DNA of 64,000 nt from IMG/VR virus record IMGVR_UViG_3300025000_000055. The stretch is one strand, 5' to 3'. Shown piece by piece: positions 13,160 through 54,117 of the stretch. Every line of letters starts with the position of its first letter. The stretch's first letter is position 1. The position numbers were made by a program, and so were the translations under genes. The DNA comes from a virus (taxonomy: Duplodnaviria > Caudoviricetes). The notes under the pieces are model-generated. The model was not told the DNA's origin and did no database searches. It saw only the letters and a program-made list of their open reading frames with translations.

Positions 13160-16100
13160 TTGGAGAATAACATAAAAGAAATTATCGATCTATTAAGTAA
13201 TAAGGTTTTTGTTATTTCTGATATAATGGAAAGTAAAGAAACCTTTAATGACATATTAGAAACTGTTTATGACTATTTAAAACAAGGTTTCGAAATCAAA
13301 GAATTGAGAACATGTCCAACCTATTTTAAGTTTAAAGAAGAGGGTGAAATCCATGTATTACAATTAAGACATTTTCTTACCAATTTAATGTTTTGGGAAC
13401 CATTAATGAGATTTGATTATTCTGATAAGATAGATGAGACATATATTGTTGATTGTACTAAAATGTCAAGTAAACTAATTAAGAATTATATTGATAATAA
13501 GATAGTTATACCTTATAAAAGAATAATTCCTAATAAGAAAATGAACAAAGTTATTCATGATATGATTTATAATCTATCTAGAATTTCAAGAGATTTTAAT
13601 ATCATATTAGGTTTATCCATGAATCTTGAAACATTTATTGATGTTGCCAAAAGGAACCCAAGATTTAATGAAATTATTAGAACCCAATTGGATGAAGATA
13701 TGCAACCAACTGAAATTGAAGCATATTTAGATAAATTAATGTATGAACAAATGGATATTTTAAAAAATGACGAGGAGGGAAATTTATTAAAACCAATACT
13801 TAAATCAGGTGCTGGTATAAAAAGTAAACAATTGGCGGAGTTTTCAATTTCTTCAGGGTTAAATATTAGCCCCGTATATAGGCGACTATGTGCGTAAACC
13901 TCTTTAATTGCTGGAAAATCTCTCAAACTCTACTATTCTACCAAAAAAATATTAATAAAAGATGGTGTTAATATTGAAATTAGTTAGTGTTGATTACTAT
14001 AAAAAAGAAAGGCAATATACTATTACCTTTTTTAAGAATAAAAATGGATATAAAACAAGAACTAAAAGATTCACTTATTCTGAAAATACCCATGGTCCTT
14101 TTACTAAATTTCTTGCTATGTATACAGCAAAAACAGGTAAGAGATTATACCACTGGTTTGTTACCGATGGTATATATACCTCAGTTTTTATATATAATAA
14201 AACTTATGGTATTAAACGTATGCTAATAGACAATGAATTTATAGATATTGTAAGAAATCATAAAATTAATATAGTAAAAAATAAAACGGGTCAAGATATT
14301 TTTTATGCAATAATAAAAATGAATGGTAGAAATATTCATGTACATCGTCTTATTATGGGTTTAGGAAAATATAATAATGATCCAGTAGATCATATTTTTC
14401 ATGATTCTTTAGACAATAGGAGATTAAATCTACGTATTTGTACACCTAGTATTAATAATAGAAATTCAAGATTACGTGTTGATAATAAAAGTGGTATACA
14501 AGGAGTTTATTTTAGTAAGCATAGAAAAACATATATTGCAGAAGTAAGGGATTTAAATGGTAAAAAAATTAGAAAACACTTTAAAATAAAGCATAATGGT
14601 AGAGAGAAAGCCATTGAATTAGCAAAACAATGGCGTGATGAAATGGTAGAAGAATATTATGAGAGAAAATCAGCAGCGAAGCCTGAATTTCAGGAACGTT
14701 CAACGACTATCAAAAGCATGTTTATTATTAATATAAAAATATAATAAACATAAGCGAGTAGAGTAGGGCTAGAAGCTAATGCTAGTTCGAAACGGGAGGC
14801 ATCTCTATGAGATGATGATATAGTCTATTATCCTAGAGTAATTTAGGGAAGTTCATAAGAGAACTGTATAGGCGTTGCGTCCTATATGAATTAAAAGTAA
14901 AACCGACTCTTAGTGGTAACACTATACCTATACCAATTAATACAAATTATATAGTTGGTGGACTGAGAAATATATCTAATTATTATATTGATTCCCTAAA
15001 CTATATTGGGGCTTCATACAGTGATGTATGTTGAATAACTTCTTTAATTGTCGGGGAAGCTCTTAGAGCTTTTTATTATATAATAAAAAGATTGAGTAAT
15101 CCGCAGCTAAGATTCCTATTAGTTATAGGAATAAAGTTCAACGACTATCCCCCATTGGCTTTGAAATAAGCAATAGGAGTAGGGCTCAAGTGAGTGGGTG
15201 AGAATCCCTTAAATCGAAATAGGAAGCATCTCTATGAGATGAAGATATAGTCTGGTATCCTAATGAAAGTTAGGGAAGTTCATAAGAGAACTGCATAGAT
15301 TAACGACCTATGTGAACTTACGAGGTGGAAGAAAGTCTTTAATTATGAGCAAACTTGAAATGGGTAAATTGAGTTGCCCATGCTTCTTTAATTGTCGGGA
15401 AATCTCTTAGAGCCTAAAACTACCAAATCATAGTAGTGATATTATGGTGGCTTAGTCTAATCAACTAAGGTATGGTAACAAGGTTTTAGGATTGAGTAAT
15501 CCGCAGCTAAGTTATTTTGTTATGTGTGATATTTTTATATAATTAAAAAAATCTAAAAAAGGAGGTGATATAATATGGGAAAAGAAATATGGAATAAAAT
15601 TATTATTGATGATGAAAATACTAAATATAGTATTAGTTCTTATGGAAATATAAGAAATGATATTACAGGATTAATTTTAAAACCATTTAAAAATCATGAT
15701 GACTATCTTGTTATTACATTATACCATAAAGGTAAAAAATATCTTAGAAGAATTAATATTTTAGTGGCTAAAGCTTTTATACCTAATCCTTTAAATAAAC
15801 CTACAGTTAATCATAAAGATGGTATTAAAACTAATAATTATGTTTATAATTTAGAATGGGCTACTTATTCTGAACAAAACATTCATGCATTTAAAATGGG
15901 TTTAATGAAACCAAAAGTTGGAGAACAATCTCATTATAATAAATATCCAGAGACTACAATTCATAAAATATGCAAATTATTAGAAGATGGATATGACCGT
16001 AAGCAAGTATCTGAAAAATTAAATGTACCAAAATCTCTAATAAAACATATTATAGGTGGTGGATCATGGAAACATGTTTCTTCACTATATATAATAGATC

Positions 16101-17713
16101 GTGAAAAGACTAAAACCAAAATATTAACTGGTTCTAAATCATATTATAGTAAATATTCTGAAGAAACTATTCGTGAAATTTGTTATCTATTACAGAAAGG
16201 TAAAAGTAGGAAATATATTAAAAATAAGCTTAATTTACTTAATACGAGGATAATAATAAATATCCAAGAAGGTACAACATGGAAACACATTTCTTCCCAA
16301 TATGTAATAATTTATGTCCCACATCATATCATACACAACAAAATAAAAAGTTCAACGACTATCAAAAACTTATTCACCATTAAAATAAATATTGGTGAAT
16401 AAAGTGAGTAGAGTAGGGCCTAAGTAGGTGGGTGAAATTCCCTTAAATCGAAATAGGAAGCCACCCAAGAGGGTGAAGATATAGTCTGGTACCCTAGTGA
16501 AAACTAGGGAAGTTCATAAAAAGAACTGCGTAGAGTAACGATTTACGTGAACACCAGGAACTCGGGTCATTTTTCGCGTATGGTCATGCTGCTAGTTTCA
16601 AGTATTAATTTATCAAAAACTGTTGAATCATGTAATAGTGTACATCCAATAAAAATTGAATTATCTTCTAAAGAACATTTGATAAGAATGAGAGGTCGAT
16701 ATTATAGAACTATGTATTCTAGAAATTATCAATTGTTAAAAGGAGATGAATATAATTTAATAAATAAAACTATTTTTATTAAATCACCTGCTACATGTGC
16801 ATGTAAAGATGGTATATGTAAAATGTGTTATGGTGACTTATCATATATAAATAAAGATATTACAATAGGTGCATTTGCTGGTACAAAAATTACAGAACCA
16901 GTATCGCAAAATATTTTATCATCTAAACACTTATTAACAACTAAATCACAAAAAATAGAATTCAATGAAGAATTTTATAAGTTTTTTAATATAAGTGGTA
17001 ATGAAATAATTATCAATGCAAGTGAAGAAAATGATGATTTAGATGATTTTAGTTTACTTATAATTAAATCTAATATTAAAACAATTGCTGATTATGATGA
17101 TAATGATATGGAATTTAATGAATATATAAATCTATTTCATGTATATAATAAGAAAACTGGTGAAATGATTGAAATAAAAGAAACTGGGGAAAAAGATTTA
17201 TATATATCACCTGAATTAAGAAAATTATTTAAGAAGAAAAGTAAGAAAGAAGTTTATGAAATTGATTTTAAAACACTTGATGATGACAATAGAATATTTG
17301 TTATTGAAGTAATTAATAATGAGTTAACTAGACCATTATATGATATTATTCGTTTAATCGATAGAGTTGATTATAGAATTATACATTGGGACTGTGTAAC
17401 AATTGACCAAATGTGTCAAAAGATGTTGGATCTATTAATAGAATCAGAGATTAATTCTGATTCTGTTCATGGTGAATTAATTTTAACACCATTGTTAAGG
17501 GATAAAGAAAATATATTAGAAAGACCTAAATTTAATAGATATTTTAATGATGATAGATACCAAATTCTAACAGTTAAAGCTGCTTTAGAAAAACATCCTT
17601 CAGTATTAGTCGGTTTATCATTCCAAGCACTTGATAGACAATTAACAAATCCATTAACATTTAGAAAGAAAGAAAGCTCATTTATTGATCCTTTCTTTAA
17701 AGAAAGACCATAG
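13160..17713 (+). CDS. Non-virion RNA polymerase beta' C-terminal subunit (AR9 gp154-like), spliced from four exons, 665 aa
   Basis: Exons 13160-13859, 14898-14997, 15323-15365 and 16559-17713 join in frame. The product reads SGAGIKSKQ..SGLKPTLSGNTIPIPINTN..YYIDSLGGRKSLIMSKLEMGNSGHFSRM (bridge helix) and has a CAC..ICKMCYG zinc site. Confidence 0.9.
13860..14897 (+). ncRNA. Group I intron 1 of RNAP beta'-C, carrying an endonuclease ORF
   Basis: P1 GGGU|UAAAUAUUAGCCC with a U.G pair; Q AAUCAGCAGC, R GUUCAACGACUA and S GAUAUAGUCU; terminal G at 14897 restores the frame. Confidence 0.88.
13962..14744 (+). CDS. Intron-encoded HNH/AP2 homing endonuclease
   Basis: VHRLIMG..VDHIFHDSLDNRRLNLR (HNH) followed by NKSGIQGVYF..YIAEV (AP2-like). 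Confidence 0.85.
   Translation: MVLILKLVSVDYYKKERQYTITFFKNKNGYKTRTKRFTYSENTHGPFTKFLAMYTAKTGKRLYHWFVTDGIYTSVFIYNKTYGIKRMLIDNEFIDIVRNHKINIVKNKTGQDIFYAIIKMNGRNIHVHRLIMGLGKYNNDPVDHIFHDSLDNRRLNLRICTPSINNRNSRLRVDNKSGIQGVYFSKHRKTYIAEVRDLNGKKIRKHFKIKHNGREKAIELAKQWRDEMVEEYYERKSAAKPEFQERSTTIKSMFIINIKI
14898..14997 (+). CDS. RNAP beta'-C exon 2 (100 nt)
   Basis: Encodes LKPTLSGNTIPIPINTNYIVGGLRNISNYYIDS; missed by the ORF track. Confidence 0.85.
14998..15322 (+). ncRNA. Group I intron 2 of RNAP beta'-C, ORF-less, 325 nt
   Basis: P1 CCCU|...GGGG; core elements AAUCCGCAGC, GUUCAACGACUA and AAGAUAUAGUCU; terminal G at 15322. Confidence 0.88.
15323..15365 (+). CDS. RNAP beta'-C exon 3 (43-nt microexon)
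   Basis: Encodes (L)GGRKSLIMSKLEMG, equivalent to bacterial GARKGLADTALKTA. Confidence 0.85.
15366..16558 (+). ncRNA. Group I intron 3 of RNAP beta'-C, endonuclease ORF in P6
   Basis: P1 UGGGU|...GCCCA; Q, R and S elements present; terminal G at 16558 is followed by AAC TCG GGT (NSG). Confidence 0.88.
15575..16402 (+). CDS. Intron-encoded HNH homing endonuclease (NUMOD4-like N-terminus, two C-terminal repeats)
   Basis: YSISSYGNIRN; VNHKDGIKTNNYVYNLEW; duplicated GxxSxYxKYxExTIxxICxLL..W.HxS units; AAGGAGGTG RBS. Confidence 0.88.
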   Translation: MGKEIWNKIIIDDENTKYSISSYGNIRNDITGLILKPFKNHDDYLVITLYHKGKKYLRRINILVAKAFIPNPLNKPTVNHKDGIKTNNYVYNLEWATYSEQNIHAFKMGLMKPKVGEQSHYNKYPETTIHKICKLLEDGYDRKQVSEKLNVPKSLIKHIIGGGSWKHVSSLYIIDREKTKTKILTGSKSYYSKYSEETIREICYLLQKGKSRKYIKNKLNLLNTRIIINIQEGTTWKHISSQYVIIYVPHHIIHNKIKSSTTIKNLFTIKINIGE

Positions 17714-17878
17714 AATTATTATATTAAAAATGTGGTGATAATATGAATAAAAAAGAATTAATACAAACTGAACAAATATCAGAGCTTTTTAATGTATAAC
17801 CTTCATCTAAAACCCAAATATTATTATTTCATACAGGGGAACCTTTGAGAATGTATATAATAAAATAAAATTTTATTT

Positions 17879-18508
17879 ATGAGAAGGAGTTGTTTTTTAA
17901 TGAAAGGGGATTTTATAAAAGTAAAAGTTGATGAGTACTTAGATATTGAGTATAAAAATACCGATTTAAATGGTAATGAAATTATACCTGATTGTTTCAA
18001 TGTCTTATCTTCAGACACAGTTATTACTACTATTAATTTCCAGGATATAATTGATACGGGGGAAGTTAGAGCTAATATCAATGAATTAGCTTTATTGAAA
18101 ATAGTTGAAATACGTTTAAAAGAAATTCAAAAAAAATCAATTAATTATAATATTGAAGATAAAATTATTACTATATGTATTGAAACAGCAATAAATATTA
18201 TACATGATGTAAAAAAAGTTACAGAATATCCCCCTAAAAACTCAATGAAACAGCGTTTAATAGAATGCTATGAGGATGCTGTTAGAAATAAAATAAAATA
18301 TATTGGGTATGTTATTACTTTAACTACTAATAATATGGATATAGAGTGTAAGATTTCTACAGTAGAAAAGTTTCAGACTAATATACAATATTTAAATAGT
18401 TTTAATAAGGATTTAGTTAAAATGGGTAATAAACATCTTAAAATAACAACATTTTGTTCCGGAAATTCATTTAGTGAAATAGAAGAAAAAATAAATAAAT
18501 TTAAATAA
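17879..18508 (+). CDS. Hypothetical protein with a degenerate Tad1-like N-terminal domain
   Basis: TTINFQ..NINELALLKIVEIRLKEIQ resembles Tad1 TIKFQ..[19 protein letters not shown] (recalled). The real start is likely ATG at 17900. Confidence 0.5.
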   Translation: MRRSCFLMKGDFIKVKVDEYLDIEYKNTDLNGNEIIPDCFNVLSSDTVITTINFQDIIDTGEVRANINELALLKIVEIRLKEIQKKSINYNIEDKIITICIETAINIIHDVKKVTEYPPKNSMKQRLIECYEDAVRNKIKYIGYVITLTTNNMDIECKISTVEKFQTNIQYLNSFNKDLVKMGNKHLKITTFCSGNSFSEIEEKINKFK

Positions 18509-18510
18509 GG

Positions 18511-18963
18511 ATGAATATATTAATGAATGGTTCTATTAAAAAAGAAACTTTTACTTTAAAATTAGCAAGAGAAATTGGAAAACCTGATAAAAATAATGTA
18601 CTTATTAGTGAAGAAATTTGGATTAATTCTTTAAACGGATATATTAAAGAATTAATAGAAAAAAATAGTTTTTTCATTACTTTAGGTAAAGAAGAACCAT
18701 TTCATGTTGATTTGTTAAAAGCTGTTGCTAGAATAAAAGAAATAAATGATAAATATGCTGTTATTGAATTAATTAAAAATTCTAATAGTATTAAGAATTT
18801 AATTGAAACTATTGGAATTGATAATTTGAGGTTAAATTTTAACACTTATTTTAAATATGAAGAAAAAAGTAATTTAAAAGTTGTAACTGAACTTAAATTA
18901 GGAACTTTTTATATAGATTATATGAATGGTGGTCCAAGCCAAAAAATAAGAGGAGATGTATAA
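18511..18963 (+). CDS. Hypothetical protein
   Basis: 150-aa ORF translationally coupled to both neighbours. Confidence 0.65.
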   Translation: MNILMNGSIKKETFTLKLAREIGKPDKNNVLISEEIWINSLNGYIKELIEKNSFFITLGKEEPFHVDLLKAVARIKEINDKYAVIELIKNSNSIKNLIETIGIDNLRLNFNTYFKYEEKSNLKVVTELKLGTFYIDYMNGGPSQKIRGDV

Positions 18964-19951
18964 TATGAAAAAACCACATCTTTCTGTACAATATAAAAAA
19001 GATTTAGGTTGTGTTTTACCAAATAAATTTGATATTATATCAAAAGTTGGTAATTATGATGATGTAAAAGTTATTAATACTATTAAATTTCAGGAAGGTT
19101 CTGTTGAGGAATTTGGAATTAATGGTGTTACTGAAGAGAGTTTATTATCTGTATTAATGATAAGATTTGAAGAACTTCAAAAAAGTCCTCTTTCTTGTGA
19201 AAAATATCAATTATCATTAGAATTAGTAAATACATTATTACAATTATTAACAAAAACAGATGAAAATTATCTAGTTCAAAATAATATAAGTAAAACAATT
19301 CTAAATCTTTTACTTGAAAAAAGAAAAGAAATTAAAGAAGAAATATTAACTAGAAAAATAACTCCAAAACAGAGACTACTTAATCTTATTGATGATGCTA
19401 TTAAATTAAATAAAAAACTTATTTCTATTTGTTATAGTTATAAGGAAGATAGTTCTTCTATTAAATCTAATAATAATACTAAATATATAGTAAATCATAC
19501 TACTAGAGTTTATGATATGATAGAATTTATATTAACTTCTTTTAATGATGAATTAAAGAATAAAATAAATTTTAACGAAAAAATAATTAGTTTTTGTTAC
19601 AGTGAACCTCAGTATTCAAAACATATTGAAGAATTACTGTTATCTAATCTATATAAAGTTGATAAAATACCTAAAAATTGTTTACTTAGTTGTATGAATG
19701 AAGTATTCAATAATGGATTTAAAAATAAATGTTTTGATTATTTAAAAAGAGATGAAAAAGGTTTGATACATCATATTAGAATTATGGGTGAAAAAGTTTA
19801 TCTAAGAGAATTAGAATATATTACCCTTTGCTATGATGATGAATTGAATAATATCTTTTTTAAAGATATTATGATTTTTGGTTTTTATTCAAATCAATAC
19901 AGTAATTTTAATGACGTTATAGAAATAATGAAAAAAAGTAGATTTTATTAA
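18956..19951 (+). CDS. Hypothetical protein with a Tad1-like N-terminal domain and an unknown C-terminal domain
   Basis: NTIKFQEGSVEEFGINGVTEESLLSVLMIRFEELQKSPLSC matches the recalled Tad1 core pattern. Confidence 0.6.
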   Translation: MYNMKKPHLSVQYKKDLGCVLPNKFDIISKVGNYDDVKVINTIKFQEGSVEEFGINGVTEESLLSVLMIRFEELQKSPLSCEKYQLSLELVNTLLQLLTKTDENYLVQNNISKTILNLLLEKRKEIKEEILTRKITPKQRLLNLIDDAIKLNKKLISICYSYKEDSSSIKSNNNTKYIVNHTTRVYDMIEFILTSFNDELKNKINFNEKIISFCYSEPQYSKHIEELLLSNLYKVDKIPKNCLLSCMNEVFNNGFKNKCFDYLKRDEKGLIHHIRIMGEKVYLRELEYITLCYDDELNNIFFKDIMIFGFYSNQYSNFNDVIEIMKKSRFY

Positions 19952-20032
19952 AATAATTATGTATTAATAAGTCATAGTTTATAGTATGTAAGTTATAATA
20001 TAAACTATGACTTATTTTTTTATAAAGAATTT

Positions 20033-20045
20033 AAATATATATTAT
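20033..20045 (+). promoter_or_regulatory. Early promoter motif AAATATATATTAT
   Basis: Exact copy upstream of the ORF 20100 / DEAH helicase unit. Confidence 0.55.
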
Positions 20046-20099
20046 AATAGTAGATTTAATTTTATAATAAATTATTTAAATTCTGAGGGGGAATATAAA

Positions 20100-20360
20100 A
20101 TGGCAGGTAGAGGAACAGTAAGGGCTTTAATGAATTTAGTAAGTGATTTTTGTGAAGTTCATGAAGAAAAGTATAGGGTTGTTAAATTAAAAGAAAGAAT
20201 TAAATTTACTCGAAATATTAGAGGCGGTTCTTTGGATGATTTAAAAAATGGGGTATTATATTTATTTGAAAAAAGTCATTCTGGTGATTGTCTTTGTCTA
20301 TTAAATGATAGCCATTTAGTAATCGTTGATAGAAGAGATATTTTAGATATAATTTGTTAA
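20100..20360 (+). CDS. Small hypothetical protein
   Basis: The GAGGGGG RBS before ATG 20100 indicates that the track start at 20007 is over-extended. Confidence 0.6.
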   Translation: MAGRGTVRALMNLVSDFCEVHEEKYRVVKLKERIKFTRNIRGGSLDDLKNGVLYLFEKSHSGDCLCLLNDSHLVIVDRRDILDIIC

Positions 20361-22345: not shown

Positions 22346-22354
22346 AACTAAAGG

Positions 22355-23380: not shown

Positions 23381-23469
23381 CTTTATCTTTTAGATGGATA
23401 TTAATTTAATCAATGTATATAGTTATATATCCATCTAAATATAAAGTTATTCATATAAATAATTTAAAA

Positions 23470-23497
23470 TATATAAAATATTAAAAAGGAGTTGTTC
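23470..23497 (+). repeat. 28-bp direct repeat, copy 1 (contains the RBS)
   Basis: TATATAAAATATTAAAAAGGAGTTGTTC, identical to 23939-23966. Confidence 0.85.
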
Positions 23498-23501
23498 TAT
23501 A

Positions 23502-23936
23502 ATGTTATCTCATCAGGTTGTATCAGTTTTTATTATCAACGACAAAAATGAAATTTTATTAATTAATCATAAGAAACTTAATGCTTGGCTTCCTCCAGGT
23601 GGTCATGTAGAGCATGAAAAAAATGAATTAATTCATCATGCTGCAATTAGAGAAGTGCTGGAAGAGACGGGTATCCACTTTAAATTTATAAGTGGAGGAA
23701 AAGGTAATATGGATAAAATATTGGGACCATTACCTTTACCTTCATTTATTCAACTAAAAGATTTAGGAGATCATTATCACGAAGATTTTATTTATGTTGG
23801 GTTGTTTGTTTCAAATGATATCCCTAAAGAAGATACAGAGATGAGATGGTTTAATAAAGAAAGTATTAATTCAATTAATACTTTTGAAAATGTTAGAAGA
23901 CACTTACAAATAATTTGTAATAGATACTTTATTTAA
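23502..23936 (+). CDS. NUDIX hydrolase
   Basis: PGGHVE..ELIHHAAIREVLEETG Nudix box. Confidence 0.9.
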   Translation: MLSHQVVSVFIINDKNEILLINHKKLNAWLPPGGHVEHEKNELIHHAAIREVLEETGIHFKFISGGKGNMDKILGPLPLPSFIQLKDLGDHYHEDFIYVGLFVSNDIPKEDTEMRWFNKESINSINTFENVRRHLQIICNRYFI

Positions 23937-23938
23937 TG

Positions 23939-23966
23939 TATATAAAATATTAAAAAGGAGTTGTTC
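23939..23966 (+). repeat. 28-bp direct repeat, copy 2
   Basis: Identical to 23470-23497; not followed by a substantial ORF. Confidence 0.85.
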
Positions 23967-24085
23967 CTTTAATTCGTATGATTATATTATTCAATTATAT
24001 ATTATAAAATTATAATAAGGTATAGTGCAACCAAAATATACAATTATTATATCTTATTAAAAAATAAAAAGGGGGGTTTTTAAGT

Positions 24086-25102: not shown

Positions 25103-25543
25103 ATGAGTTCTATGTCTACTCATCAATATGTAATTATAACTTTACCCAGTTCTATATATGATGCAGATAGAGAAATAGCTGCATCATCATTAAAGAATTA
25201 TGTTTATCAATTTTGCCAAAAGTATTTTATAACTCCGGCTAAATTTCCTGTAGACTTTCACAGTACTTATAATAAATGTCCAGAATATTATTGCGATGGT
25301 AGCAATTCGTTTGAGCTCATTGATTCGAATTATGAAGGGGAATGGTTAATTTCTAAAAAAGAAAAAGTGAAATTAGCCGTAGCTATTGAAACAAATCTAC
25401 CATGTGAGAATATAGTTAAACTGTATGAACTGAACCTTATTCAAGGATTCTCAGTTCATGTGTTTGGTTCTATCTTCCTCCATAATAATATAACAGGTTT
25501 AGTAACAAAGTTGTTTAAAATAATTAATGAAAAAAAACATTAA
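25103..25543 (+). CDS. Hypothetical protein
   Basis: AAGGGGG RBS; 146 aa. Confidence 0.65.
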   Translation: MSSMSTHQYVIITLPSSIYDADREIAASSLKNYVYQFCQKYFITPAKFPVDFHSTYNKCPEYYCDGSNSFELIDSNYEGEWLISKKEKVKLAVAIETNLPCENIVKLYELNLIQGFSVHVFGSIFLHNNITGLVTKLFKIINEKKH

Positions 25544-25581
25544 ATCTAACGTTTTTAAAAAATCTTATTGTATTATAATAT

Positions 25582-25636
25582 GTTCTTTCCATGTATCCAA
25601 CATCAATAAATGAGATGTTGGATACATGGAAAGAAC
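25582..25636. repeat. Perfect 23-bp inverted repeat with a 9-nt loop
   Basis: GTTCTTTCCATGTATCCAACATC / GATGTTGGATACATGGAAAGAAC. Confidence 0.85.
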
Positions 25637-25715
25637 TATAACGCTTGCAAGGGTGAAAATACTTGCACCGTCATTGTAATTAAAAAATATTACTTTGACG
25701 TAAAAAGGAGGAAAT

Positions 25716-39785: not shown

Positions 39786-42700
39786 ATGAAAAAACCATAT
39801 ATTTATGATTTGGAAACTAAGAACTTATCTTTCTTACAAACAGCTAAAGATCTACATGTACTTGGTATTAAAAATAATGTATTTTTTTTAAAATTGTATG
39901 ATAAATCTTTAAAGAAAGTTGATCCTCATTCACCATTTTTAACAGATGACCAAATTATAAAAATTATTAATGAATGTATGATTAATCCCTGGTATTTTTT
40001 AAGAGAGGTTGCAAGAATTGCAGATCAAGGCGGGAGGGGTCTTCCATATCAACTTCATAGGGCTAATCTAGCTTCCACATATTGTTATTTAAATGGTATA
40101 GATCATTATGTAGTAATACCAAGACAAAAAGGTAAAACTCAAAGTGAATTAGCTATAATAAATTGGTCATTTCTATTAGGTACAACTAATTCAGAATTTA
40201 TGTTTTTAAGTCTAAGTCAAGCTGGTGCTAATGAAAATCTTGATAGATTGAAAAAACAAAAAGATTTATTACCACATTATTTACAATTTAAAATGATTTT
40301 TTCAGATGATGGTAAAATTATTAAAGAAACTGATAATGTTAAAACTTTAGCTAATGCTATTAATGGTAATAAAATAATAACTAAACCATCTGCTAAATCA
40401 ATAGAAGCCGCCGAGAAGATCGGTAGGGGTTATTTTTAGCTCCCTCATACAGTAATGTATGTTGAATAACTTCTTTAATTGTCGGGGAAGCTCTTAGAGC
40501 CTAAGACTACTAAATTATATTAGTAATAATATAATGGCTTGGACTAATCAACCAAGGTATAGTAATAAGGTTTTAGGATTGAGTAATCCGCAGCTAAGAT
40601 TTTATTAAATGGGTAACAATTTTATAAAAAAATGTATAAAGGTGTTGATAATAAAATGTTTGTCGTAATACCAGTTGAAAGGAAAAAATTTAAACCATTG
40701 ACATTCCCAGAAGTTCAAGAAGGTAGATATATAATCAGTAATTATGGTGATATTATTGATTTAAAAACAGGATTAGAAAAAAAATTAAATATTAATAAGA
40801 AAAAATAATTATATTAGTGCAAAAATTAAAATGGATAATAATAAAACTAAATCAATAGCTGTTCATAGATTAGTAGCTTATGAATTTTGTGATAATTATA
40901 ATGTTAATGATAAAAATAGTCTTAAAAGTTTTAATTATTATGAAAATCTTGAATGGGTTACTTATTCTGAGAATAATAAACATCGTTTTGAGCATGGGAA
41001 TGGAAGTAGTGCTAAACCACCAATACTTAGGGGTGAGAATAATCCTCACAACGTTTACTCTACAGAATTTATAAAGGAAATTTGTTTTTTATTAACTAAA
41101 AGATATACTGTTAAAGAAATACTAGATTATTTTGAATGTATAGAAAATAGGAAAAAAATAATTTCTTTAATTCATGATATACGATGTAGAAGAACATGGG
41201 GACATATTTCTAGAAATTATGATTTTGAAACCCATTTAACAAAATAAAGTTCAACGACTATCCCATTGGTACTGAAATGGTACAATAGGAGTAGGGCTCA
41301 AGTGAGTGGGTGAAATTCCCTTAAATCGAAATAGGAAACTCCATTATACTGATTATATAATGGATGAAGATATAGTCTAGTATCCTAATGAAAGTTAGGG
41401 AAGTTCATAAGAGAACTGCATAGATTAACGACCTATGTGAATATATCGAGTACACAACCTGTGCATTTATACGACGAAGTTGAGTTTACATCCTATATTA
41501 AAACTATCATTGAGGCAGCGGCAATGGCGTTTAAAACAGCTTCTAAAAATGCAAAAAGAAATAATGCCCCTTATTGCCGTTCGTTCCTGAGCACACCTGG
41601 AGATCTCGATACTAAAGCTGGACAAGAATGTATGGATATAATTAGTAAGACATATAGATGGACTGAAAAATTTTATGATATGAATATAGATGATGTTAAA
41701 GAAATTATAATAAATAATTCAGAAAATAGAATAGTTTATATTGAATACGATTATAAACAATTAGGAGAAGGTGAAGAATGGTTTAATGAATCTTGTGCAG
41801 TAATAGGTAATAATCCATTAAAAATTAAGAGAGAATTATTATTACAAAGAATGAGAGGTTCTTCTAATTCTCCATTTGAACCAGAAGATTTAGAACTTAT
41901 TAGAGAAAAACAAGGTAAAATAATTGAAGAAATATTTATTAATAAATTATTTAGATTGGACATATATAAACCTTTAGTAAGAGATAGAATTTATTTTATA
42001 TGTGTTGACGTTTCAAAAGGTTATGGTCAAGATAATTCAGCTGTAGTAATATTAGATCCATATGAACTCAAGCCCGTTGCAGAATTTGAATCACCGTATA
42101 TAGGTGTAACTCAATTAAAGAATTTTTTATATACACTTGTTAAGAAATATTTACCTAGAAGTATTTTATGTATTGAAAGAAATGAGAATGGTGAATCTAT
42201 ATTAGATGGGTTAAGATATACTGATATAATGCATAATTTATATTTTGATAAAGATAAAGACCCTATTGCTTCACAATTAGATGATAGAATGGATAGTCAA
42301 GGATTTTTAAAACAAGAAGCTTTGAAACGTAAATTATATGGTGTATGGACTGGAACTAAATCAAGACAAGTAATGTTTAGTTTATTGGAAACACATATCG
42401 CAGAATATAAAGATAATTTTATTTGTGCAAATATTATTAATGATTTATTTAAATTAGTCATGAAAAAGAATGGTAAGATTGAAGCTGAAAGTGGATTCCA
42501 TGATGATTCTATTATGGCATATTTAATAGGATTATATGTTTATTATCATGGTAATAATCTACATTATTTTGGTTTTGTTAAAGGTGAATTACCTGATGAA
42601 AAAACCCGAAATAAAGGATTATCGACATATGATGAAATAATGGAAGAAATGCCTGATGAAGAAAAACGATTTTTTGATGAGAGTTTTGGTTCTAAGACTA

Positions 42701-42867
42701 TAGATGATTATCAAAATCATGTAATAGAAGAACTAAAAAGAGTTCAAAGAGAACAAACTAATATGACTAATGCAAGTGGGATGTTTAAACCAACAACCTA
42801 TGCTGAACAATATGAAGATAATGAAATTGAAATACCATTAGACTTCTTTGATGAATTAAATAGTTAG
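39786..42867 (+). CDS. Terminase large subunit, spliced from two exons, 687 aa
   Basis: Exons 39786-40430 and 41449-42867. Walker A PRQKGKT; the junction KIGRG|STQPVHLYDE restores Walker B; nuclease motifs CVDVSKG and HDDSIMA. Confidence 0.92.
40431..41448 (+). ncRNA. Group I intron of the terminase, degenerate endonuclease in P6
   Basis: P1 GGGGU|...GCUCC; Q, R and S elements; terminal G at 41448. Confidence 0.88.
40633..41247 (+). pseudogene. Decayed HNH homing endonuclease
   Basis: The NUMOD4-like part (RYIISNYGDIID) stops in an A run near 40808. The HNH part continues in another frame, with VNDKNSLKSFN replacing VNHKDGxKxNN. Confidence 0.75.
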
Positions 42868-44705: not shown

Positions 44706-44717
44706 AACATTAGGATA
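44706..44717 (+). promoter_or_regulatory. AR9-like late promoter AACA-N6-TA
   Basis: AACA-TTAGGA-TA upstream of 44783. Confidence 0.5.
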
Positions 44718-44782
44718 AGGTTGTGAATTTTAAATTCACTTCCTTATCCTAATTTTATTTTTTAAAGGTAGGTGTAAATAAA

Positions 44783-45517
44783 TTGATTGAAAATTTTTTA
44801 AGTGATAATGGTACAGACATAATATTTAATGGGGAACAATTAGAAGCTTACATACCAGAATTTTATTTTAAAAATAATAAATTAGGTGAGCAATTAGGTT
44901 CATCTTTAAAAGTTTTTGGTTTATTCAACATTAGAATGATTAATAAAGGTAAACCGTCTAAACTTGAGACTTTTATTCTACCATCAATGATTATGGTGTT
45001 CCCTTCAACAATTGAATATAAGAAATTAAAATTAATAGATGAACAGGAAGAAGAAGAATGTTATATGGTATTAAATTTCTTTAAAGGTGGAAAGATTACA
45101 CCTAATAGTGTTTCACAAGATGCAACTAATGTGGAATTATTTTTAGATCTTATATGTGGTGGGAAATTACCAGAAACTATTCCTTATAACCAAATAATTC
45201 AAATATGGCAAAAGAATTTAAATCTGAATAATATTAATTTGAACGTAACATCAACTGTATTAGAAGTTATTGTAAGCGAAATTTATCGTAATAAAAAAAA
45301 ACCAGAAGAAACATTTGCTAAATTATGGGGAAGAAATCCTAATATATCGCAATATGAATATAAACGAGCGAATATTAGAGAAATTTGTGCTAGAAATTCT
45401 ACTTTTGCTGCATTAACATATGAGGATATGGATGCTATGATAACATCTTCTCTTAACATTAGGAACTATAATAGGGAAGAAACTGAATCTCCTATAGAAA
45501 AAATAATAAAGATGTAA
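44783..45517 (+). CDS. Probable virion RNA polymerase beta' C-terminal fragment subunit
   Basis: VLEVIVSEIYR and NIREICARNSTFAALTYEDMDAMITSSL resemble beta' HIEVIVRQM and [26 protein letters not shown]. Confidence 0.6.
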   Translation: MIENFLSDNGTDIIFNGEQLEAYIPEFYFKNNKLGEQLGSSLKVFGLFNIRMINKGKPSKLETFILPSMIMVFPSTIEYKKLKLIDEQEEEECYMVLNFFKGGKITPNSVSQDATNVELFLDLICGGKLPETIPYNQIIQIWQKNLNLNNINLNVTSTVLEVIVSEIYRNKKKPEETFAKLWGRNPNISQYEYKRANIREICARNSTFAALTYEDMDAMITSSLNIRNYNREETESPIEKIIKM

Positions 45518-45528
45518 TAATCAATGAG

Positions 45529-45540
45529 AACAATTAAATA
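45529..45540 (+). promoter_or_regulatory. AR9-like late promoter AACA-N6-TA
   Basis: AACA-ATTAAA-TA upstream of the sheath gene. Confidence 0.6.
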
Positions 45541-45558
45541 AAAAAATTCACAAGGAGG

Positions 45559-47409: not shown

Positions 47410-47443
47410 AAAATAATAAAAAATAACAAGGGAGTGATTATAT

Positions 47444-48265
47444 ATGGCCGATGTTAGTACTCTTCAATCCAATATTAAAAGCAATACTAAAGATATGACC
47501 CTATATTCCCTATTTTTAGGTGGATTAAATGTAACTTCTAAAGCATTAGCGCAGTACGATCCATTAAAAACTGGTTATGCTAGAATATTTTTTACAAAAA
47601 TGCCACCTTTTATGAAAACTATTGTACCTGAAAAAACGAAACAATTTAAACATTTACTCGAATATGGTTTTGTTGGGGTTGATGGTCTGCAAAACATTAC
47701 TTTAGAATTTGAACAAGTTGGTGGTGGATATGCCGGTAGACAATTCGAAATTCCAACAGTAGCTAAAGATGAAACTAACAGTCTTACTGTTAAAGTTTAT
47801 GAAATGGCAGGTTCACCTGTTCGAGATTATGTTGATATGTGGATTTCAGGTATTTCAGATCCATATACTGGCCTTGGTCATTATCACGGAGCATTAGATA
47901 TAGCTAATGCAGGTCTATCATATTCTCAAGTAAACCATTCAGCGGAAGCATTTTATGTTGAAACTGATCCAACTGGTCGTAGTACTGGTATTGAGTATGC
48001 TTGCCTTTTAACCAATTTGGTTCCTAAAGTTGTAAAACTTGATCATTTTAATTACGAGGCCGGTAATCATCCAATTGTTCAAACAGATATTGAATTTACT
48101 GCAACTAAATATCAATCACCACAGATTAATGATATTGCGGTAGCATTAATTGCTAAATATAAAATTCTTAGAGATTACCTTAAATTTGATTCTCAGTATA
48201 CCACTACTGATATTGACAATATGACAGTACCAAATATTAGTGATTGGGGTTCTTCTGCAACTTAA
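47444..48265 (+). CDS. Tail tube protein
   Basis: 273 aa directly after the sheath, as in phiKZ gp29-gp30. Confidence 0.72.
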   Translation: MADVSTLQSNIKSNTKDMTLYSLFLGGLNVTSKALAQYDPLKTGYARIFFTKMPPFMKTIVPEKTKQFKHLLEYGFVGVDGLQNITLEFEQVGGGYAGRQFEIPTVAKDETNSLTVKVYEMAGSPVRDYVDMWISGISDPYTGLGHYHGALDIANAGLSYSQVNHSAEAFYVETDPTGRSTGIEYACLLTNLVPKVVKLDHFNYEAGNHPIVQTDIEFTATKYQSPQINDIAVALIAKYKILRDYLKFDSQYTTTDIDNMTVPNISDWGSSAT

Positions 48266-48272
48266 AAATAAA

Positions 48273-48306
48273 TATGTCTATACTGATTAATTTCAGTATA
48301 GACATA
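48273..48306. terminator. Bidirectional terminator between convergent genes
   Basis: TATGTCTATACTGA-TTAATT-TCAGTATAGACATA. Confidence 0.75.
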
Positions 48307-48309
48307 AAT

Positions 48310-50936
48310 TTATTGTTCAGTTGAACTATCATCAGGATTTTCTGTTAAAATTTTCTGATATTCTAATTTAGCATCTTCTACAGCTGTATCAAACATCCTC
48401 CAAGGTAACATTGGTAAAATTTCTCTAGTTGCCTTATTCATAATTAAATCTTTAATTTTATTATCCTTATCTGTTGGAGAAGCATTTTCTCCCGATACTA
48501 TTTTAAGCATAAATGCTAGCAATTGATCTGCATTTGAAATTAAATCACTCATATTCATAGTATTTAGTGCTTTAGGTAAATTTAAACTATATACAAATGT
48601 TTCAATTATTTCTTTAGGTATTTCTGTACCAGAAAATTTCATTATTTTTTTATAGAATTCAGTTATATTAGGGTTAAAATCAAGTTGATCACTTACAACT
48701 CTCCCTGTAAATTTGGCATTAGCCATGACAAGAGTCTTTGCATACGGTATATTCACATAGGTCGTTAATCTATGCAGTTCTCTTATGAACTTCCCTAACT
48801 TTCATTAGGATACTAGACTATATCTTCATCTTTTATTAAGTTAATTAATCCTAATAAAAGAGCTCTCCATTTCGATTTAAGGGATTTTCACCCACCTACT
48901 TAGGCCCTACTCCTATTGATCATTTCAGATCCAAAGGGATAGTCGTTGAACTTTATTCCTTATTATATAAGGAATCTTAGCTGCGGATCACCTAATCTTA
49001 AACATTATTACCTTACTCAGGTTAATTACTCCTGACCACTATATCATTGCTAATATAGTTTGGTAGTTTAAGATTTAAAGACTTCCCCGACAATTAAAAG
49101 AGAATTGGTATTATAGATCACTCTATAACCTGACTAATAATTATCAGCTTCATTGATATAATTCATTATTACAGATGGGACACCAGTACCATTAATGTAA
49201 GATGTTTTTAACATCTCCATTAAATCAGTATTTAATTGTATATCCTGACCTGCCAATATATCAAACTCTATTCCTTTTTCACCAGTTCTACCTACAGGTA
49301 CAAAAACACCTTTAGCATGACCAATTTTAGATACCATTGTATTATAATTTAATAAATCCATAAAATTTATATCTCTTTCTTTAAGAGTTCTAGCTACATC
49401 TTGTAATTTATTAATAATATTTGTATCTATACCAGAATTTTTAATATAATTAATTCTAGTATCGTTAGATTTACTAATAATAGAAACCATCTTAAATATT
49501 AAAAGAGCTAAATATAATTTAGCATAAAATAATGACTTCATTAGTATACTAGTTCCTTCACCATCTTCATTTTCATTAACAGTGAATTCAGTTATATAAT
49601 CAACTGGTATAAATTGAAATTTTATTTTCTTTTTATATAGTTCATTATAAGATAAGCAATTGAATATTAATTCTTTAAATTTAATATTTTCTTCTAAGTA
49701 TTTTTTATTAAATGATTTAACGATTTTTTCAGTTAGTTTAGTTAAAAACATATTTTCAAGTTCGGGTGTATTAAGATTAACAGTATTAATTCGTATTGTA
49801 TTAATAAATGGGGATTTACTAATAGGTGAAGCTTCATGTATATAATAGTATCCTATAACATGATCCATTATTTTAACAGGTATGATCTTTTTAGGACTAA
49901 TTAATTTAATAAAACAATCCGTTATATTATCAAAATTATTAGTCTTATCTTTTTCTGTAGATATAGTTGCATCATTAAAAAATGTTGAAAATGAATTAGT
50001 TTTATTTTTAGATTTATTACTATTTTTAATAGCATCTTCAACATCTTTTTTAAATTTTTCATCAGTAATAAGTTCCGATACATCAACACCTTCTAGTATA
50101 GGTATATGTACAATATCATTTTCGACTTCAATATCTTTAACTAAATCTTTTATTTCTTTTTTTAATATTGAGGAAACCGATTTAATTTGCCCGTCATCTT
50201 TTAATTCTCTTATAAAATTATCATCAATATTTTCAGTTATAGAAATTGTTTTTAATTCTCTTACCTTTTTATCATAGAAATTTTCAAATAATTTTGAATA
50301 AGGTACAGTGTAAACATAATATTTACCGTATTGAAGAGTTTTCGGTATAATATGATTTTTCAATTTACTTGATAATTTAAATTTAGTCTCTAAATTTTCT
50401 ATTAATGATATATAACTCTGTTTATCTTCTTCACTACAATTAGAACTTTTAAATTGTAAATTTCTTGATATAGATTGAGTAACATCATCAGCTGTTACTA
50501 TCGCATCTCTAGTTGCATTAACAGCTTCTTCTAGCTCAAATAGATGACTACAAATTAAATCAAGGTCTTCATACAAAAGATTTTGATTTCTATATCTTTC
50601 ATTAAAAAATTGAAATACAGCATTGTCTTCTGATGAAAATATATCTTCAATTTTTTTTATATTTGAAAATTGTTGACTCTCATAATCATTAAATAGTTTT
50701 ACTAGAAAAGTTGATATGTCATCTCCACCAAAATCAGTTAATTTTTTTATCTCCTGAAAAATAACATCATCAACCTGATCTGATAATTTTTTAATTTCTT
50801 TCTCTCTTTTAGTATCACTTGCATTAGTATTAAAAGAAATTTTATCCAATACATCATTAAATAAAGCATTTAATTTTATCAACGGTCTTTCTATTTTTTT
50901 AACAATTACTCTTTTAGTTTGTTTCTCAGCACTCAT
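48310..50936 (-). CDS. Portal protein, spliced from two exons, 742 aa
   Basis: Exons 50936-49143 and 48744-48310; junction GVPSVIMNYINEAD|YAKTLVMANAKF; YGKYYVY and DILAGQ portal-like motifs. Confidence 0.8.
48745..49142 (-). ncRNA. Group I intron of the portal gene, ORF-less, 398 nt
   Basis: P1 CUGAU|...GUCAG; Q, R and S elements on the minus strand; terminal G at 48745. Confidence 0.88.
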
Positions 50937-50994
50937 TTATATTATTCACTTCCTTCGGTATTTTTTATTTAAAAAATACTAGAATAATAATATT

Positions 50995-51642
50995 CTAGTA
51001 TTTAATACACATGTATCTGTGAAATAAATTAAAGTATTCGGTTTCAAAAATTATTAAACTTTCAAATAAATTACTATTATTTATATCTTTAAAACTAATA
51101 CTGATATTATTACTTTTTTTCAATAACGGTATTAGTTTATTTGCTAATCTTACTTTATAATCATTCATTGAAAAAGTAACAATATTTTTAGCATTTAGCT
51201 TTTCTATTATATCATATGATATTATCTTTTTATCAATATTATCAAAATCATTTATTTTATTTATAGCTAATTTATACAGATCATATAATTCTTTTGTTAT
51301 AGACTTAATATTAATTATTCTACCTATTTGAAAGCTATTTTCATCTTTATCATCTGTTAAAAATAAAGTATTATTTAAATAATTTATATGTTTTATACTC
51401 TTTTTATTCTTACTAATAACTTTAAATACATCATTGGAACTTATACAAAATATTTGATCATTTTCAATATTAAATATAGGTGTAAATACTTTACCAAAAT
51501 GTTCTCCATAACTCAAATGTTTGTTATCGATAGTGAATATTATAGTACCATCAGAAAATAAAAGATATTCTGTAGATAATTTTTTAGCCAATTGATTAAA
51601 ATCATTTAATTTTTTTACTTCAAATTTATACATATATTTCAT
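50995..51642 (-). CDS. Hypothetical protein downstream of the DNA polymerase N-subunit
   Basis: 215-aa ORF with an AAGGA RBS. Confidence 0.65.
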   Translation of the reverse strand: MKYMYKFEVKKLNDFNQLAKKLSTEYLLFSDGTIIFTIDNKHLSYGEHFGKVFTPIFNIENDQIFCISSNDVFKVISKNKKSIKHINYLNNTLFLTDDKDENSFQIGRIINIKSITKELYDLYKLAINKINDFDNIDKKIISYDIIEKLNAKNIVTFSMNDYKVRLANKLIPLLKKSNNISISFKDINNSNLFESLIIFETEYFNLFHRYMCIKY

Positions 51643-51645
51643 CCT

Positions 51646-54117
51646 TTACACTATAATTTTATTAACATAATAATTATTAACATCATTAATATCAATAATT
51701 AGTTTCTTGTTCTTTTTAATATTTAACTTTTCTTTTATAACAGAATCTATTTCTTCTAATTTGGGAAGATTAAAAAAATCATGACCTAAACTATTTAAAT
51801 CACCTATTAACATATTATCTATAAAGATTTTACCTATATCTTCTTTTTTATCTTTATCATCAATATCTTCAATATAATTTGGCAATTCCTTATTATTTTC
51901 TATAATTAATTTACCGATCATGGAATTAGGTTCAATATTAAAACAAATAATAATACTTGGATACATACTGGAAAACGTAATATTCACATAGATCGTTATT
52001 CTATGCAGTTCTCTTATGAACTTCCTTAGCTTTCACTAAGATACTAGACTATATCTTCATCCATTATATAATCGGTATAATGGAGCCTCCTATTTCGATT
52101 TAAGGGATTTTCACCCACCTACTTAGGCCCTACTCCTAATGACCATTTCAGATCCAAAGGGATAGTCGTTGAACTTTATTCCTATAACTAGGAATCTTAG
52201 CTGCGGATTACTCAATCTTTTTATTATAAATAAAAAGCTCTAAGAGCTTCCCCGACAATTAAAGAAGTTATTCAACATACATTACTATATGAGGGAACAA
52301 ATTCATCCATATCAATAACATTGTCAAATATAAATTGACTTTTTTTACCTAAAATTTCAATACCAACATGAGAATTTAATAATGGGTTGGCAACTAAAGC
52401 TCCTGCAAATTTTTCATCTTCATCATCTTCGTTATTCTTGATTGTTTCTACACCATACTGAATATTAATGTTATTAGCTATTATTAACCCTTGCTTATAA
52501 AATTCTATATATGCACGATTTTTTAAAAACGTTAAGTTCACATAGATCATTAGTCTATGCAGTTCTCTTATGAACTTCCCTAAGCTTTCCTTAGGATACC
52601 AGACTATATCATCATCTCATAGAGATGCTTCCTATTTCGATTTAAGGGATTCTCACCCACCTACTTAGGCCCTACTCCTAATGACCATTTCAGATCCAAA
52701 GGGATAGTCGTTGAACTTTATTCCTATAACTAGGAATCTTAGCTGCGGATTACTCAATCTTTTTATTATAAATAAAAAGCTCTAAGAGCTTCCCCGACAA
52801 TTAAAGAAGTTTACAATACATATTACTATGTAAAGGGTCTAATTATTAAACCGTTTGTCTAAATACTTTTTTATAAGTTGTAGCATTAGTATATGAACGT
52901 TGATATACATTATCAATATCATTAACTTTTCTTTCAATACCTAATTGAAGTAAGACGTCTTTAATATTATACATAACAAATTTTTTATAATTTCTATATG
53001 GTAAAGTTTTAATATTACCATCTTCACTATAATCTAATTTAGTATCACTAATTTCTTTTTCTGCAACATAAGTAAGAGCATTAGAACGTAATTCCGAAGC
53101 TCCTTTTCTTAAAGCACTGTATACTATCATTTGATCTAAAAAAACTGTATAAGATGATATTTTAAAATAATCACCTTTATTTGCTACTTTAAAATTTCTC
53201 ATATCTTTTACAAACATTAATTCTTTTATATTAAAATCAGGATGACACATTATTTCTTTTGGATCTAAATTTAACTCTTTCATACGAGCTATTAAATATG
53301 GGACATCAAATCCGATATTCCAAATCATTAAGAAATCACGTTTAAGAGTATTTATTAATTTAAATGTATCTATCAACATTTCACTTTCATCTTCATACAT
53401 ATAAATATTATATTTTAATACCCCATATGATTCATCAAATACTTTATGAAGCTCTTCTACAAAATTATCTATATCTTTTTTAAACTTTTCTATTTGAGGA
53501 TTATTTTCATTTTCTAAAAGAAAAGTAAAACATGTGTTACTAGTTTCATCAATTAAAGTAATTGCATTAACTGGACATTCACCATCTTTAGGAAATCCAA
53601 TTACTTCTATTGAATCAACTTCAATATCAAGATATGTCTTAGTTATAGGTTTAGGTTTATCATTATGATAATTTAATAACCATTGTATTCTATACCAATT
53701 TTCAATATTATAATCTGAACCAAATACATATCTATATTTATGCAAATTATTAATAGCATACCTATTTCTAGTTTCCAACTTTTGTTTAATATAAGTTAAA
53801 TATTCTTCACCTGCTTGTTTAGCTATATAAAAAGGTAAATCTTTATATTTAGTTCGGTGACACTCAGTTTCACTTAAAGGACTAAATGATTTATTATGTT
53901 GAAAATTTCTAAATTCTTCTTTTGTAAAATAAATATCCATCTCAGGTTCATCTATAGTTAATATGTGTTTTTCACCAGTATTTAAATCTTTATAAATAAT
54001 ATCGAGACTATCTTTATACTTTCTTTCTTTATTAGGAAAATGGTAAATTGTTTCTAAAAACATTATGTTATCACTTTTCATCTTTCCAAGAAACTTCATT
54101 CTATAAATCACCACCAA
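51646..54117 (-). CDS. Family B DNA polymerase, N-terminal subunit (3'-5' exonuclease + motif A; phiKZ gp82-like), spliced from three exons, about 607 aa
   Basis: Exons 54117-52849, 52529-52305 and 51975-51646. ExoI LDIEVD, ExoII WNIGFD, ExoIII YNIKD; the junction IDMD|FSSMYPSII rebuilds motif A. Confidence 0.88.
51976..52304 (-). ncRNA. Group I intron 2 of DNA polymerase, ORF-less, 329 nt
   Basis: P1 GGAU|...GUUC; core almost identical to the neighbouring intron; terminal G at 51976. Confidence 0.88.
52530..52848 (-). ncRNA. Group I intron 1 of DNA polymerase, ORF-less, 319 nt
   Basis: P1 GGUU|UAAUAAUUAGACC; terminal G at 52530; junction FRQTV|FLKNRAY is in frame. Confidence 0.88.

Follow-up and report, generated by a model that had tools for sequence, protein, structure and literature searches.

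The stretch analysed here, referred to as the window, comprises 64,000 nucleotides of the virus record IMGVR_UViG_3300025000_000055 (Duplodnaviria; Caudoviricetes) and carries, in four unrelated essential genes, seven group I introns of one family, numbered I1 to I7 by position. An initial annotation, derived by a model from the letters alone, had described these introns and proposed that the ribozyme spreads to new sites within the genome by changing its guide. The phage is an uncultured AR9-like jumbo phage with a G+C content of about 25%, whose proteins share about 27-41% amino acid identity with those of AR9/PBS1-like jumbo phages. Searching the deposited phage genomes with the window returned no close relative, and the sequencing runs that contain its sequence are groundwater metagenomes (DNA). 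Comparisons were made with a close relative, G001, an IMG/VR contig of 249,853 bp with about 85% nucleotide identity to the window (L078-L090), which also served for the complete-genome intron census, and with a further relative, G003. The ends of the G001 contig are redundant and not identical (1-20.8 kb versus 228.3-249.8 kb, here copies 1 and 2), and they differ in their introns, with I1 found in the second copy only, I2 in the first only and I3 in neither. The contig probably merges two strains over the terminal redundancy.

Joining the exons gives, at the DNA level, four open frames whose register is identical to that of intron-less alleles, and it rejoins the bridge helix, the Walker B region and motif A, in agreement with the initial annotation. 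The first gene, on the plus strand, encodes the C-terminal half of the non-virion RNA polymerase (nvRNAP) beta' subunit (13160-17713; exons 13160-13859, 14898-14997, 15323-15365 and 16559-17713; 666 amino acids when spliced, start codon uncertain). The spliced product matches the PHROG RNA polymerase (RNAP) beta subunit (3.9e-40) and is colinear over its three junctions with the uninterrupted AR9 g154. It harbors I1 (13860-14897, 1038 nt), I2 (14998-15322, 325 nt), located just before the bridge helix, and I3 (15366-16558, 1193 nt), which starts 43 nt after I2. The 43-nt exon flanked by I2 and I3 lies inside the bridge helix, with LGGRKSLIMSKLEMG/NSGHF as the joined motif (a slash within a protein motif marks the joint). 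The second gene, also on the plus strand, is that of the terminase large subunit (TerL; 39786-42867; exons 39786-40430 and 41449-42867; 688 amino acids when spliced), which matches the PHROG terminase large subunit (3.9e-55) and, in tblastn, the AR9-like TerL. Here I4 (40431-41448, 1018 nt) sits just before Walker B, the joint GRG/STQPVHLYDEVE lying two residues ahead of the VHLYDE stretch.

The other two genes lie on the minus strand. The portal vertex protein (48310-50936; exons 50936-49143 and 48744-48310; 743 amino acids when spliced) is colinear with the uninterrupted AR9 portal g128 and contains I5 (48745-49142, 398 nt), which shows a long P5 extension. The N-terminal part of the family B DNA polymerase (PolB), with the exonuclease and motif A (51646-54117; exons 54117-52849, 52529-52305 and 51975-51646; 608 amino acids when spliced), matches Pfam DNA_pol_B_exo1 and PHROG DNA polymerase, and is colinear with AR9 g132 across both junctions. 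I6 (51976-52304, 329 nt) interrupts motif A, where the joint reads DMD/FSSMYPS, and I7 (52530-52848, 319 nt) lies in the same gene. As in AR9, the catalytic part of PolB is a separate gene, found uninterrupted on the minus strand at 10507-12543 (678 amino acids; compare AR9 g152). Its orthologue in G001 copy 2 carries a family intron of about 345 nt (G001 242529-242873) at the window break 11112/11114, and on this comparison the window would be the intron-less allele of an eighth family site. Since beta', PolB, TerL and portal are all interrupted, the expression of these genes, and with it transcription, replication and packaging, would have to depend on splicing, as the initial annotation had anticipated.

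Concerning the kinship of the copies, a repeat search recovered all seven at the same coordinates as the initial annotation, with 80-100% identity over 40-185 nt, both direct and inverted. The 3' halves (J6/7 to the terminal G) were aligned (alignment A1) and converted into a covariance model, R1. In the window R1 matches at exactly the seven copies and at nothing else above noise, with scores from 146 to 220 bits (I1 146.4, I2 218, I3 183.9, I4 208, I5 208, I6 211.6 and I7 220), I1 being the most divergent. The Rfam group I model RF00028, with a gathering threshold of 50 bits, scores 84.5 bits for I2, 81.1 for I7, 67.9 for I6 and 67.3 for I5 on short stretches; among the copies that bear an open reading frame (ORF), it reaches 31 bits on the 3' part of I4, below gathering, and gives no match to I1 and I3 in the 2.8-kb stretch searched. 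These three copies are nevertheless homologous to the others by R1 (146-208 bits), so that one ribozyme family indeed occupies the four genes. It should be noted that whole-window Rfam scans, both at the gathering score and at E<=10, return no group I intron, and neither does a scan of the 2.8-kb stretch. This is an effect of speed filters and does not mean that introns are absent, as the same introns reach 67-85 bits once stretches of 400-1000 nt are supplied. Hence, the whole-genome Infernal search proposed in the initial annotation would fail at default settings and is informative, for four copies, on short stretches. More generally, Rfam scans of long AT-rich phage DNA can miss group I introns altogether, and standard scans miss every copy here.

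The secondary structure is equally consistent. The Rfam alignment covers P1 to P9 and reveals an additional insert of about 70 nt between P7 and P3' (P7.1/P7.2), as is typical of phage introns of the IA type; the insert folds into two hairpins whose covarying pairs are 8 out of 8. P7 (GACUAU/AUAGUC) and GAUAUAGUC are invariant, P7 and J8/7 forming the conserved guanosine-binding core. Among 74 family members from the window and related contigs, 95.1% of the cells in the 3' half are paired, compared with 34-44% in a control of slid alignments, and compensatory changes are seen in 33 of 44 pairs; covariation extends to P2 and P4-P6, and inspection reveals a compensatory change in P4 of I1. In every copy the 5' exon ends in U, which forms a U.G pair with the start of a 4-6 bp guide, and the terminal base of the intron is G. 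The P1 pairings, given as exon target and guide, are GGGU with GCCC in I1, CCCU with GGGG in I2, AUGGGU with GCCCAU in I3, GGGGU with GCUCC in I4, CUGAU with GUCAG in I5 and GGUU with GACC in I7. Thus each intron does have a P1 guide of its own, as had been claimed, but the guides are not all different, given that I1, I3 and I4 share a GCCC core and a GGGU target. I3 lacks the P2 hairpin (15366-15400), P3 following directly after the guide GCCCAU. All seven are group I introns of one family, and their similarity to phage K-type and AR9 introns suggests subgroup IA2.

An alternative to consider at this point is that the copies are not introns and form a dispersed repeat between separately translated gene fragments, in line with the natural division of jumbo-phage RNAP and PolB into several genes (PMC7598289). 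We rejected this reading and give it next to no credence: RF00028 scores are well above threshold, start codons are lacking in the 43- and 100-nt exon pieces, the bridge helix and PolB motif A are themselves interrupted, and close relatives carry exact intron-less alleles.

Indeed, uninterrupted DNA matches all seven junctions, provided by G001 alleles for I1, I2, I3 and I6, by AR9 for I1-I3 and I5-I7, and by distant TerL genes for I4. G001 17378-17463 is an intron-less allele of the I1 site, to which the joined flanks of I1 align without gaps, and the same-site intron of G001 copy 2 is 93% identical to I1. At the I2 site, G001 copy 2 has no intron and copy 1 has one of 1173 nt that bears a homing endonuclease (HE); the I3 site is empty in both G001 copies and in contigs from the same samples (joint 15364>16580). 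Across the I4 junction the uninterrupted TerL of four more distant relatives (L005, L008, L009 and L012) aligns through GRG/STQP; the site has ORF-less introns in G001, G003 and same-sample contigs. At the I5 site there is a 386-nt intron in G001 and an HE-bearing one of 1175 nt in G003, and at the I7 site a 1107-nt HE-bearing intron in G001 and one of 328 nt in G003. I6 is exactly absent from G001, which runs on without interruption across 51424/51425 and matches the joined flanks at 93%, and it is also absent from same-sample contigs; its site in G003 contains a 789-nt intron with no endonuclease ORF of at least 45 codons. Contigs from the same groundwater samples include, as variants at the DNA level, joints without I6, joints without I3 and I4 variants without the endonuclease insert. 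Depth peaks over the intron cores in the contig pile-ups were excluded as evidence of copy number. Some Logan contigs of the source samples join I4 (40504-41448) to I5 (48745-49016) or I7 (52763), which lie on opposite strands; these joins may be crossings of the assembly graph through the repeated core, or real intron-mediated inversions.

Three of the introns carry endonuclease genes, all on the plus strand, those of I1 and I3 being intact. The ORF in the P5 region of I1 (13962-14744, 260 amino acids) is of the HNH-AP2 type, with a PHROG HNH endonuclease match of 4e-26 and a Pfam AP2 score of 33.2 bits (cut-off 33.3). The one in the P6 loop of I3 (15575-16402, 275 amino acids) is of the NUMOD4-HNH type (NUMOD4 36.8 bits, cut-off 23.4; HNH_3 21.8, below the 24.8 cut-off; PHROG HNH 2.7e-43). 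I4 contains a decayed NUMOD4-HNH gene (40632-41247), broken into an N-terminal fragment of 58 amino acids (40632-40808) and a C-terminal one of 138 amino acids (40831-41247) in different frames, which match in blastp the endonucleases of I3, A_I7 and B_I5, and PHROG HNH with 7e-14. The 3' end of the I1 ORF runs about 47 nt into the ribozyme core (J6/7-P7-P7.1; 14698-14744, the core motif starting at 14698) and that of the I3 ORF about 53 nt (16350-16402), so the overlapping bases serve twice, for protein coding and for catalytic RNA structure.

I2, I5, I6 and I7 are ORF-less, as described initially, with no stop-free stretch longer than 44 codons. This state had been taken as an argument for mobility at the RNA level, which we do not support, as I2, I5 and I7 are each matched by an HE-bearing intron at the same site of a relative (I6 being the exception), and with NUMOD4-HNH genes in these counterparts the loss of the ORF is the simpler account. 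Endonucleases of different sites are homologous and only 29-42% identical, which implies long residence at separate sites.

The question then is whether the copies are related mainly by site or by genome. Relatives have same-site introns for I1, I2, I4, I5, I6 and I7, which share the guide and the last ~8 nt of the site; in the relatives examined I3 has no such counterpart. A maximum-likelihood (ML) tree of the intron interiors, of the sort the initial annotation had suggested, resolves only the I5 clade (window, G001 and G003, support 100/100), leaving 9 of 12 branches unsupported, and for this reason we relied on quartet column counts and recombination tests. In the quartets, composed of two sites in two genomes, each informative column is scored as grouping by site, by genome or across. 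For the window versus G003 the counts are 174 site, 30 genome and 5 cross columns, and for the window versus G001 they are 138, 33 and 10. The orthology signal is thus dominant, and the copies of the window would mostly not be recent offspring of each other. This grouping by site comes close to the outcome that the initial annotation had itself set against its model.

The minority signal is nonetheless informative. If both the genome and the cross patterns were homoplasy, they should be equally frequent; they amount to 63 and 15 columns, respectively, a 4-6-fold excess per comparison. A PHI-type statistic of 0.379, against 0.604 +/- 0.019 in permutations (0 of 2000 as low, p<0.0005), rejects a single history for the copies. 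The longest runs of identical polymorphic columns connect different sites of the window genome (I6-I7 69, I2-I6 63, I2-I7 53 and I4-I5 29), and the variants of P2, the P5 extension, P6, P7.2 and P8 sort independently of site. For instance, the compensated P7.2 variant CCUAAGUAGG is common to I3, I5, I6 and I7 of the window and occurs in none of their same-site counterparts, and P8 of the window I7 equals that of the window I1 and I2 and differs from P8 of I7 in G001 and G003. Identity between window copies starts right after the guide and stops before the 3' tail. Long mosaic tracts that exclude guide and tail are the pattern expected of gene conversion under selection for site-specific ends, and a mosaic history also accounts for the poor resolution of the ML tree. 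We infer that the near-identity within the genome comes mostly from gene conversion between paralogous intron interiors, and is not, as first proposed, a sign of recent copying.

These data also bear on the view that the introns are independent site-specific homing elements, inherited vertically or horizontally at their own sites, which owe their likeness to shared descent and to the constraints on a ribozyme, never to exchange between the copies of a genome. The majority of columns grouping by site, the 100/100 clade of I5 orthologues and the ancient divergence of the endonucleases agree with it; the excess of genome over cross columns, the recombination result together with identical runs of 53-69 columns found only between different sites of the window genome, and the site-independent sorting of P2, P5, P6, P7.2 and P8 variants do not, and make it quite unlikely that exchange played no part.

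The family extends well beyond the window. In G001, R1 has 19 matches, which reduce to 18 distinct sites in at least 11 genes when the redundant ends are counted once; it has 11 in a 95-kb near-identical phage fragment and 5 in G003. Further G001 sites lie in several RNAP beta/beta' genes (adjacent to the motifs RYGNKGV and NADFDGD), in a UvsX-like recombinase (two introns), in the PolB catalytic gene and in others. Many other jumbo-phage contigs of IMG/VR carry members of the family, and some contain six or seven of them in a space of 3 kb. At the loci L026 (1003-3827) and L042 (1184-3457) the six or seven matches fall within 2.3-3 kb, with a spacing of about 300-360 nt, and these loci appear to be genes cut into many micro-exons by tandem short introns. 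In its annotation the AR9 terL gene (L094, AR9 94802-98003) consists of five joined pieces, and the four introns between them match R1 with 65-86 bits, clustering round Walker B. The first of them was evaluated as an occupant of the I4 site and rejected, its position being 6 nt upstream of I4. An exact copy of the 26-nt P9.1 motif of this family was also observed in L096 (CAJOGN010000001.1, 258,041 bp), a scaffold of a sheep-derived 'Lachnospiraceae' metagenome-assembled genome, which is probably a jumbo-phage genome binned as bacterial. Given that the clade has about 20 sites and that AR9 terL is interrupted at other positions, ectopic colonisation must have happened at some time in the history of the family, which now occupies many unrelated sites. 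The proposed spread to new sites hence holds as history (18 sites in G001, four in AR9 terL), but the quartets speak against recent spread within this genome.

Regarding how new sites are reached, the guides provide some indications. The GGGU target with GCCC guide is found at I1, I3, I4 and two more G001 sites (5 of ~18), and the CCCU target with GGGG guide at I2 and two more (3 of ~18); GGGT and CCCT each make up about 0.3% of NNNT words (GGGU 0.32%), and their use as targets is far above this. This reuse at unrelated sites is at odds with spread by a changing guide. In some pairs of different-site introns of G001, the P1 loop, guide and P2 are all identical. The target bias would be expected as well from selection for a stable, G/C-rich P1 in DNA of 25% GC, or if conversion is tolerated only between sites with the same target. 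RVT_1, the reverse transcriptase domain, has no match in the complete 250-kb relative G001, where positive controls worked; the host might supply such an enzyme. For the reverse-splicing route of group I introns there is no direct evidence (PMC3984707), and an alternative route consists of relaxed endonuclease specificity, ectopic cleavage and illegitimate repair (PMC3984707). On this account the premise of the initial annotation that endonucleases move introns only between alleles of the same site is too strict.

In its full form the initial model holds that the introns transpose actively within the genome by reverse splicing or another RNA-guided route, the guide being re-matched each time, and that the copies are recent offspring. 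It draws on the long identical tracts that connect different sites of one genome, on the polymorphic occupancy (I3 and I6 missing in close relatives), on the guide and target classes reused at unrelated sites, with their shared P1 loops and P2, and on the over-represented GGGU and CCCU targets. We consider it unlikely. Most sites, among them I2 and I4-I7, are occupied in relatives by introns with site-specific guides and tails, and site-grouping columns dominate; identity stops at guide and tail, as conversion under selection predicts; endonucleases in same-site relatives make DNA homing sufficient for presence and absence; and the target bias can be ascribed to P1 stability. Reverse splicing in particular finds no backing in G001, which yielded no RVT_1 reverse transcriptase, and the pathway lacks direct evidence for any group I intron (PMC3984707). 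A less demanding version, in which the family is still colonising new sites in the clade by a guide-directed, reverse-splicing-like route, is suggested by the recurrence of GCCC and GGGG guides at eight unrelated GGGU and CCCU sites, by the different-site pairs with identical P1 loop, guide and P2, and by I3 and I6 being missing from co-occurring strains. We regard it as rather doubtful; if true, ectopic group I intron transposition could be observed as it happens in nature, in this groundwater phage population.

Taken as a whole, the data are best explained by an old family of homing introns that is homogenised by gene conversion, a reading we consider probable. The seven introns would be functional phage IA-type group I introns with P7.1/P7.2, belonging to a family found throughout a clade of uncultured AT-rich AR9-like jumbo phages. 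They would be excised from the mRNA by guanosine-initiated two-step transesterification, beta', TerL, portal and PolB being made only after splicing. At the population level they would behave as site-specific homing elements, every site having a guide and a 3' tail of its own and, where there is an endonuclease, a diverged NUMOD4-HNH or HNH-AP2 enzyme of its own as well. At the DNA level, co-occurring strains vary in occupancy and in endonuclease content, which fits a cycle in which introns are gained, decay and are lost. During recombination-rich phage replication the intron interiors would undergo gene conversion, as the mosaic tracts suggest, and selection for splicing would keep P1 and the 3' end site-specific. 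New sites would have been colonised many times in the history of the family, with a bias to the GGGU and CCCU targets of reused guides, mostly before the split from the sequenced relatives, by reverse splicing, ectopic endonuclease cleavage or illegitimate recombination.

Several points weigh against the homing and conversion scenario. With the ML tree as it is, the orthology at I2, I6 and I7 rests on column counts and site-specific ends, and among I2/I6/I7 pairs the site and genome counts are close (9 versus 10; 10 versus 5), so that recent copying there is indistinguishable from conversion. The p-values are optimistic, because columns within one conversion tract or helix are not independent. 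I3 could be a recent gain. Lastly, the runs that contain the phage are groundwater DNA only, and splicing itself is deduced from the sequence.

Two further features of the window lie outside the introns. A perfect 24-bp hairpin with a 9-nt loop (25581-25637), at the 3' end of the ORF 25103-25543, received a spurious microRNA call and is probably a terminator. An AT-rich block that ends in AAAAAGGAGTTGTTC is repeated at 23455-23539 and 23924-24008, upstream of two neighbouring genes, which may share it as promoter and ribosome-binding site.

For annotation, the consequence is that, as long as the introns stay in, four core genes here and about a dozen in relatives are wrongly called as fragments. 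Beyond that, the strain differences at about 20 sites and the recombination between copies offer a compact data set on two questions, namely how group I introns reach new sites, and how dispersed ribozymes evolve in concert yet keep site-specific guides.

Among known systems, the Bacillus jumbo phages AR9/PBS1 and the MarsHill-like jumbo phages of Staphylococcus belong to the same lineage, with 27-34% amino acid identity for beta', TerL exon 2, portal and PolB, and about 41% for TerL exon 1. AR9 has the same split PolB and split RNAPs, and MarsHill and PALS_2 give the best database DNA matches to the window (77%). In AR9 and MarsHill-like phages, RNAP subunits, DNA polymerase and TerL have been described as intron-disrupted, with variable exon boundaries (bioRxiv 10.1101/2020.12.14.422802). 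The intron sites differ, however, the AR9 beta' C-half, portal and PolB N-part being uninterrupted; moreover, compared with AR9/MarsHill, the window copies are much more alike (~90%) and the clade has more copies, with 18 sites in one relative. The IA-type core of the window introns recurs in the lysK intron of phage K, about 75-79% identical over 120-160 nt. The putative NUMOD4-HNH endonucleases of the window, placed in a peripheral loop, may be of the same kind as the HNH nicking endonucleases I-HmuI, I-BasI, I-TwoI and I-KsaI of the Staphylococcus phages Twort/K and the Bacillus phages SPO1/SP82/Bastille. Twort orf142 is reportedly also one gene with several introns and very short exons between them, like the window beta'. 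Unlike the case described here, with one sequence-exchanging family at about 20 sites, Twort/K/SPO1-type phages have a handful of introns each. The introns of Bastillevirinae have recently been surveyed (PMC11878797), and intron endonucleases matter in the competition between jumbo phages (PMC11620839).

A comparable intron load is known from Jug phages, which have a mean of 18.5 group I introns per genome, 37 of 76 being confirmed by metatranscriptome reads; in Jug and crAss-like phages dozens of introns split essential genes, including terL and DNA polymerase (PMC12880540). Those are phages of a different lineage with different hosts, and their reported introns are mostly about 206 nt long. 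In the rDNA of fungi and protists, related introns at different sites with 4-6 nt of guide-target complementarity are the classical circumstantial argument for reverse splicing (PMC3984707). The window family shows the same traits, but its targets are protein-coding genes of phages, G001 yielded no reverse transcriptase, and gene conversion is another possible source of the similarity. Multi-intron RNAP, DNA polymerase and TerL genes are already documented in AR9-like and other large phages; the features worth recording are one family at about 20 sites, its strong homogenisation within the genome, and co-occurring strains that are polymorphic for occupancy.

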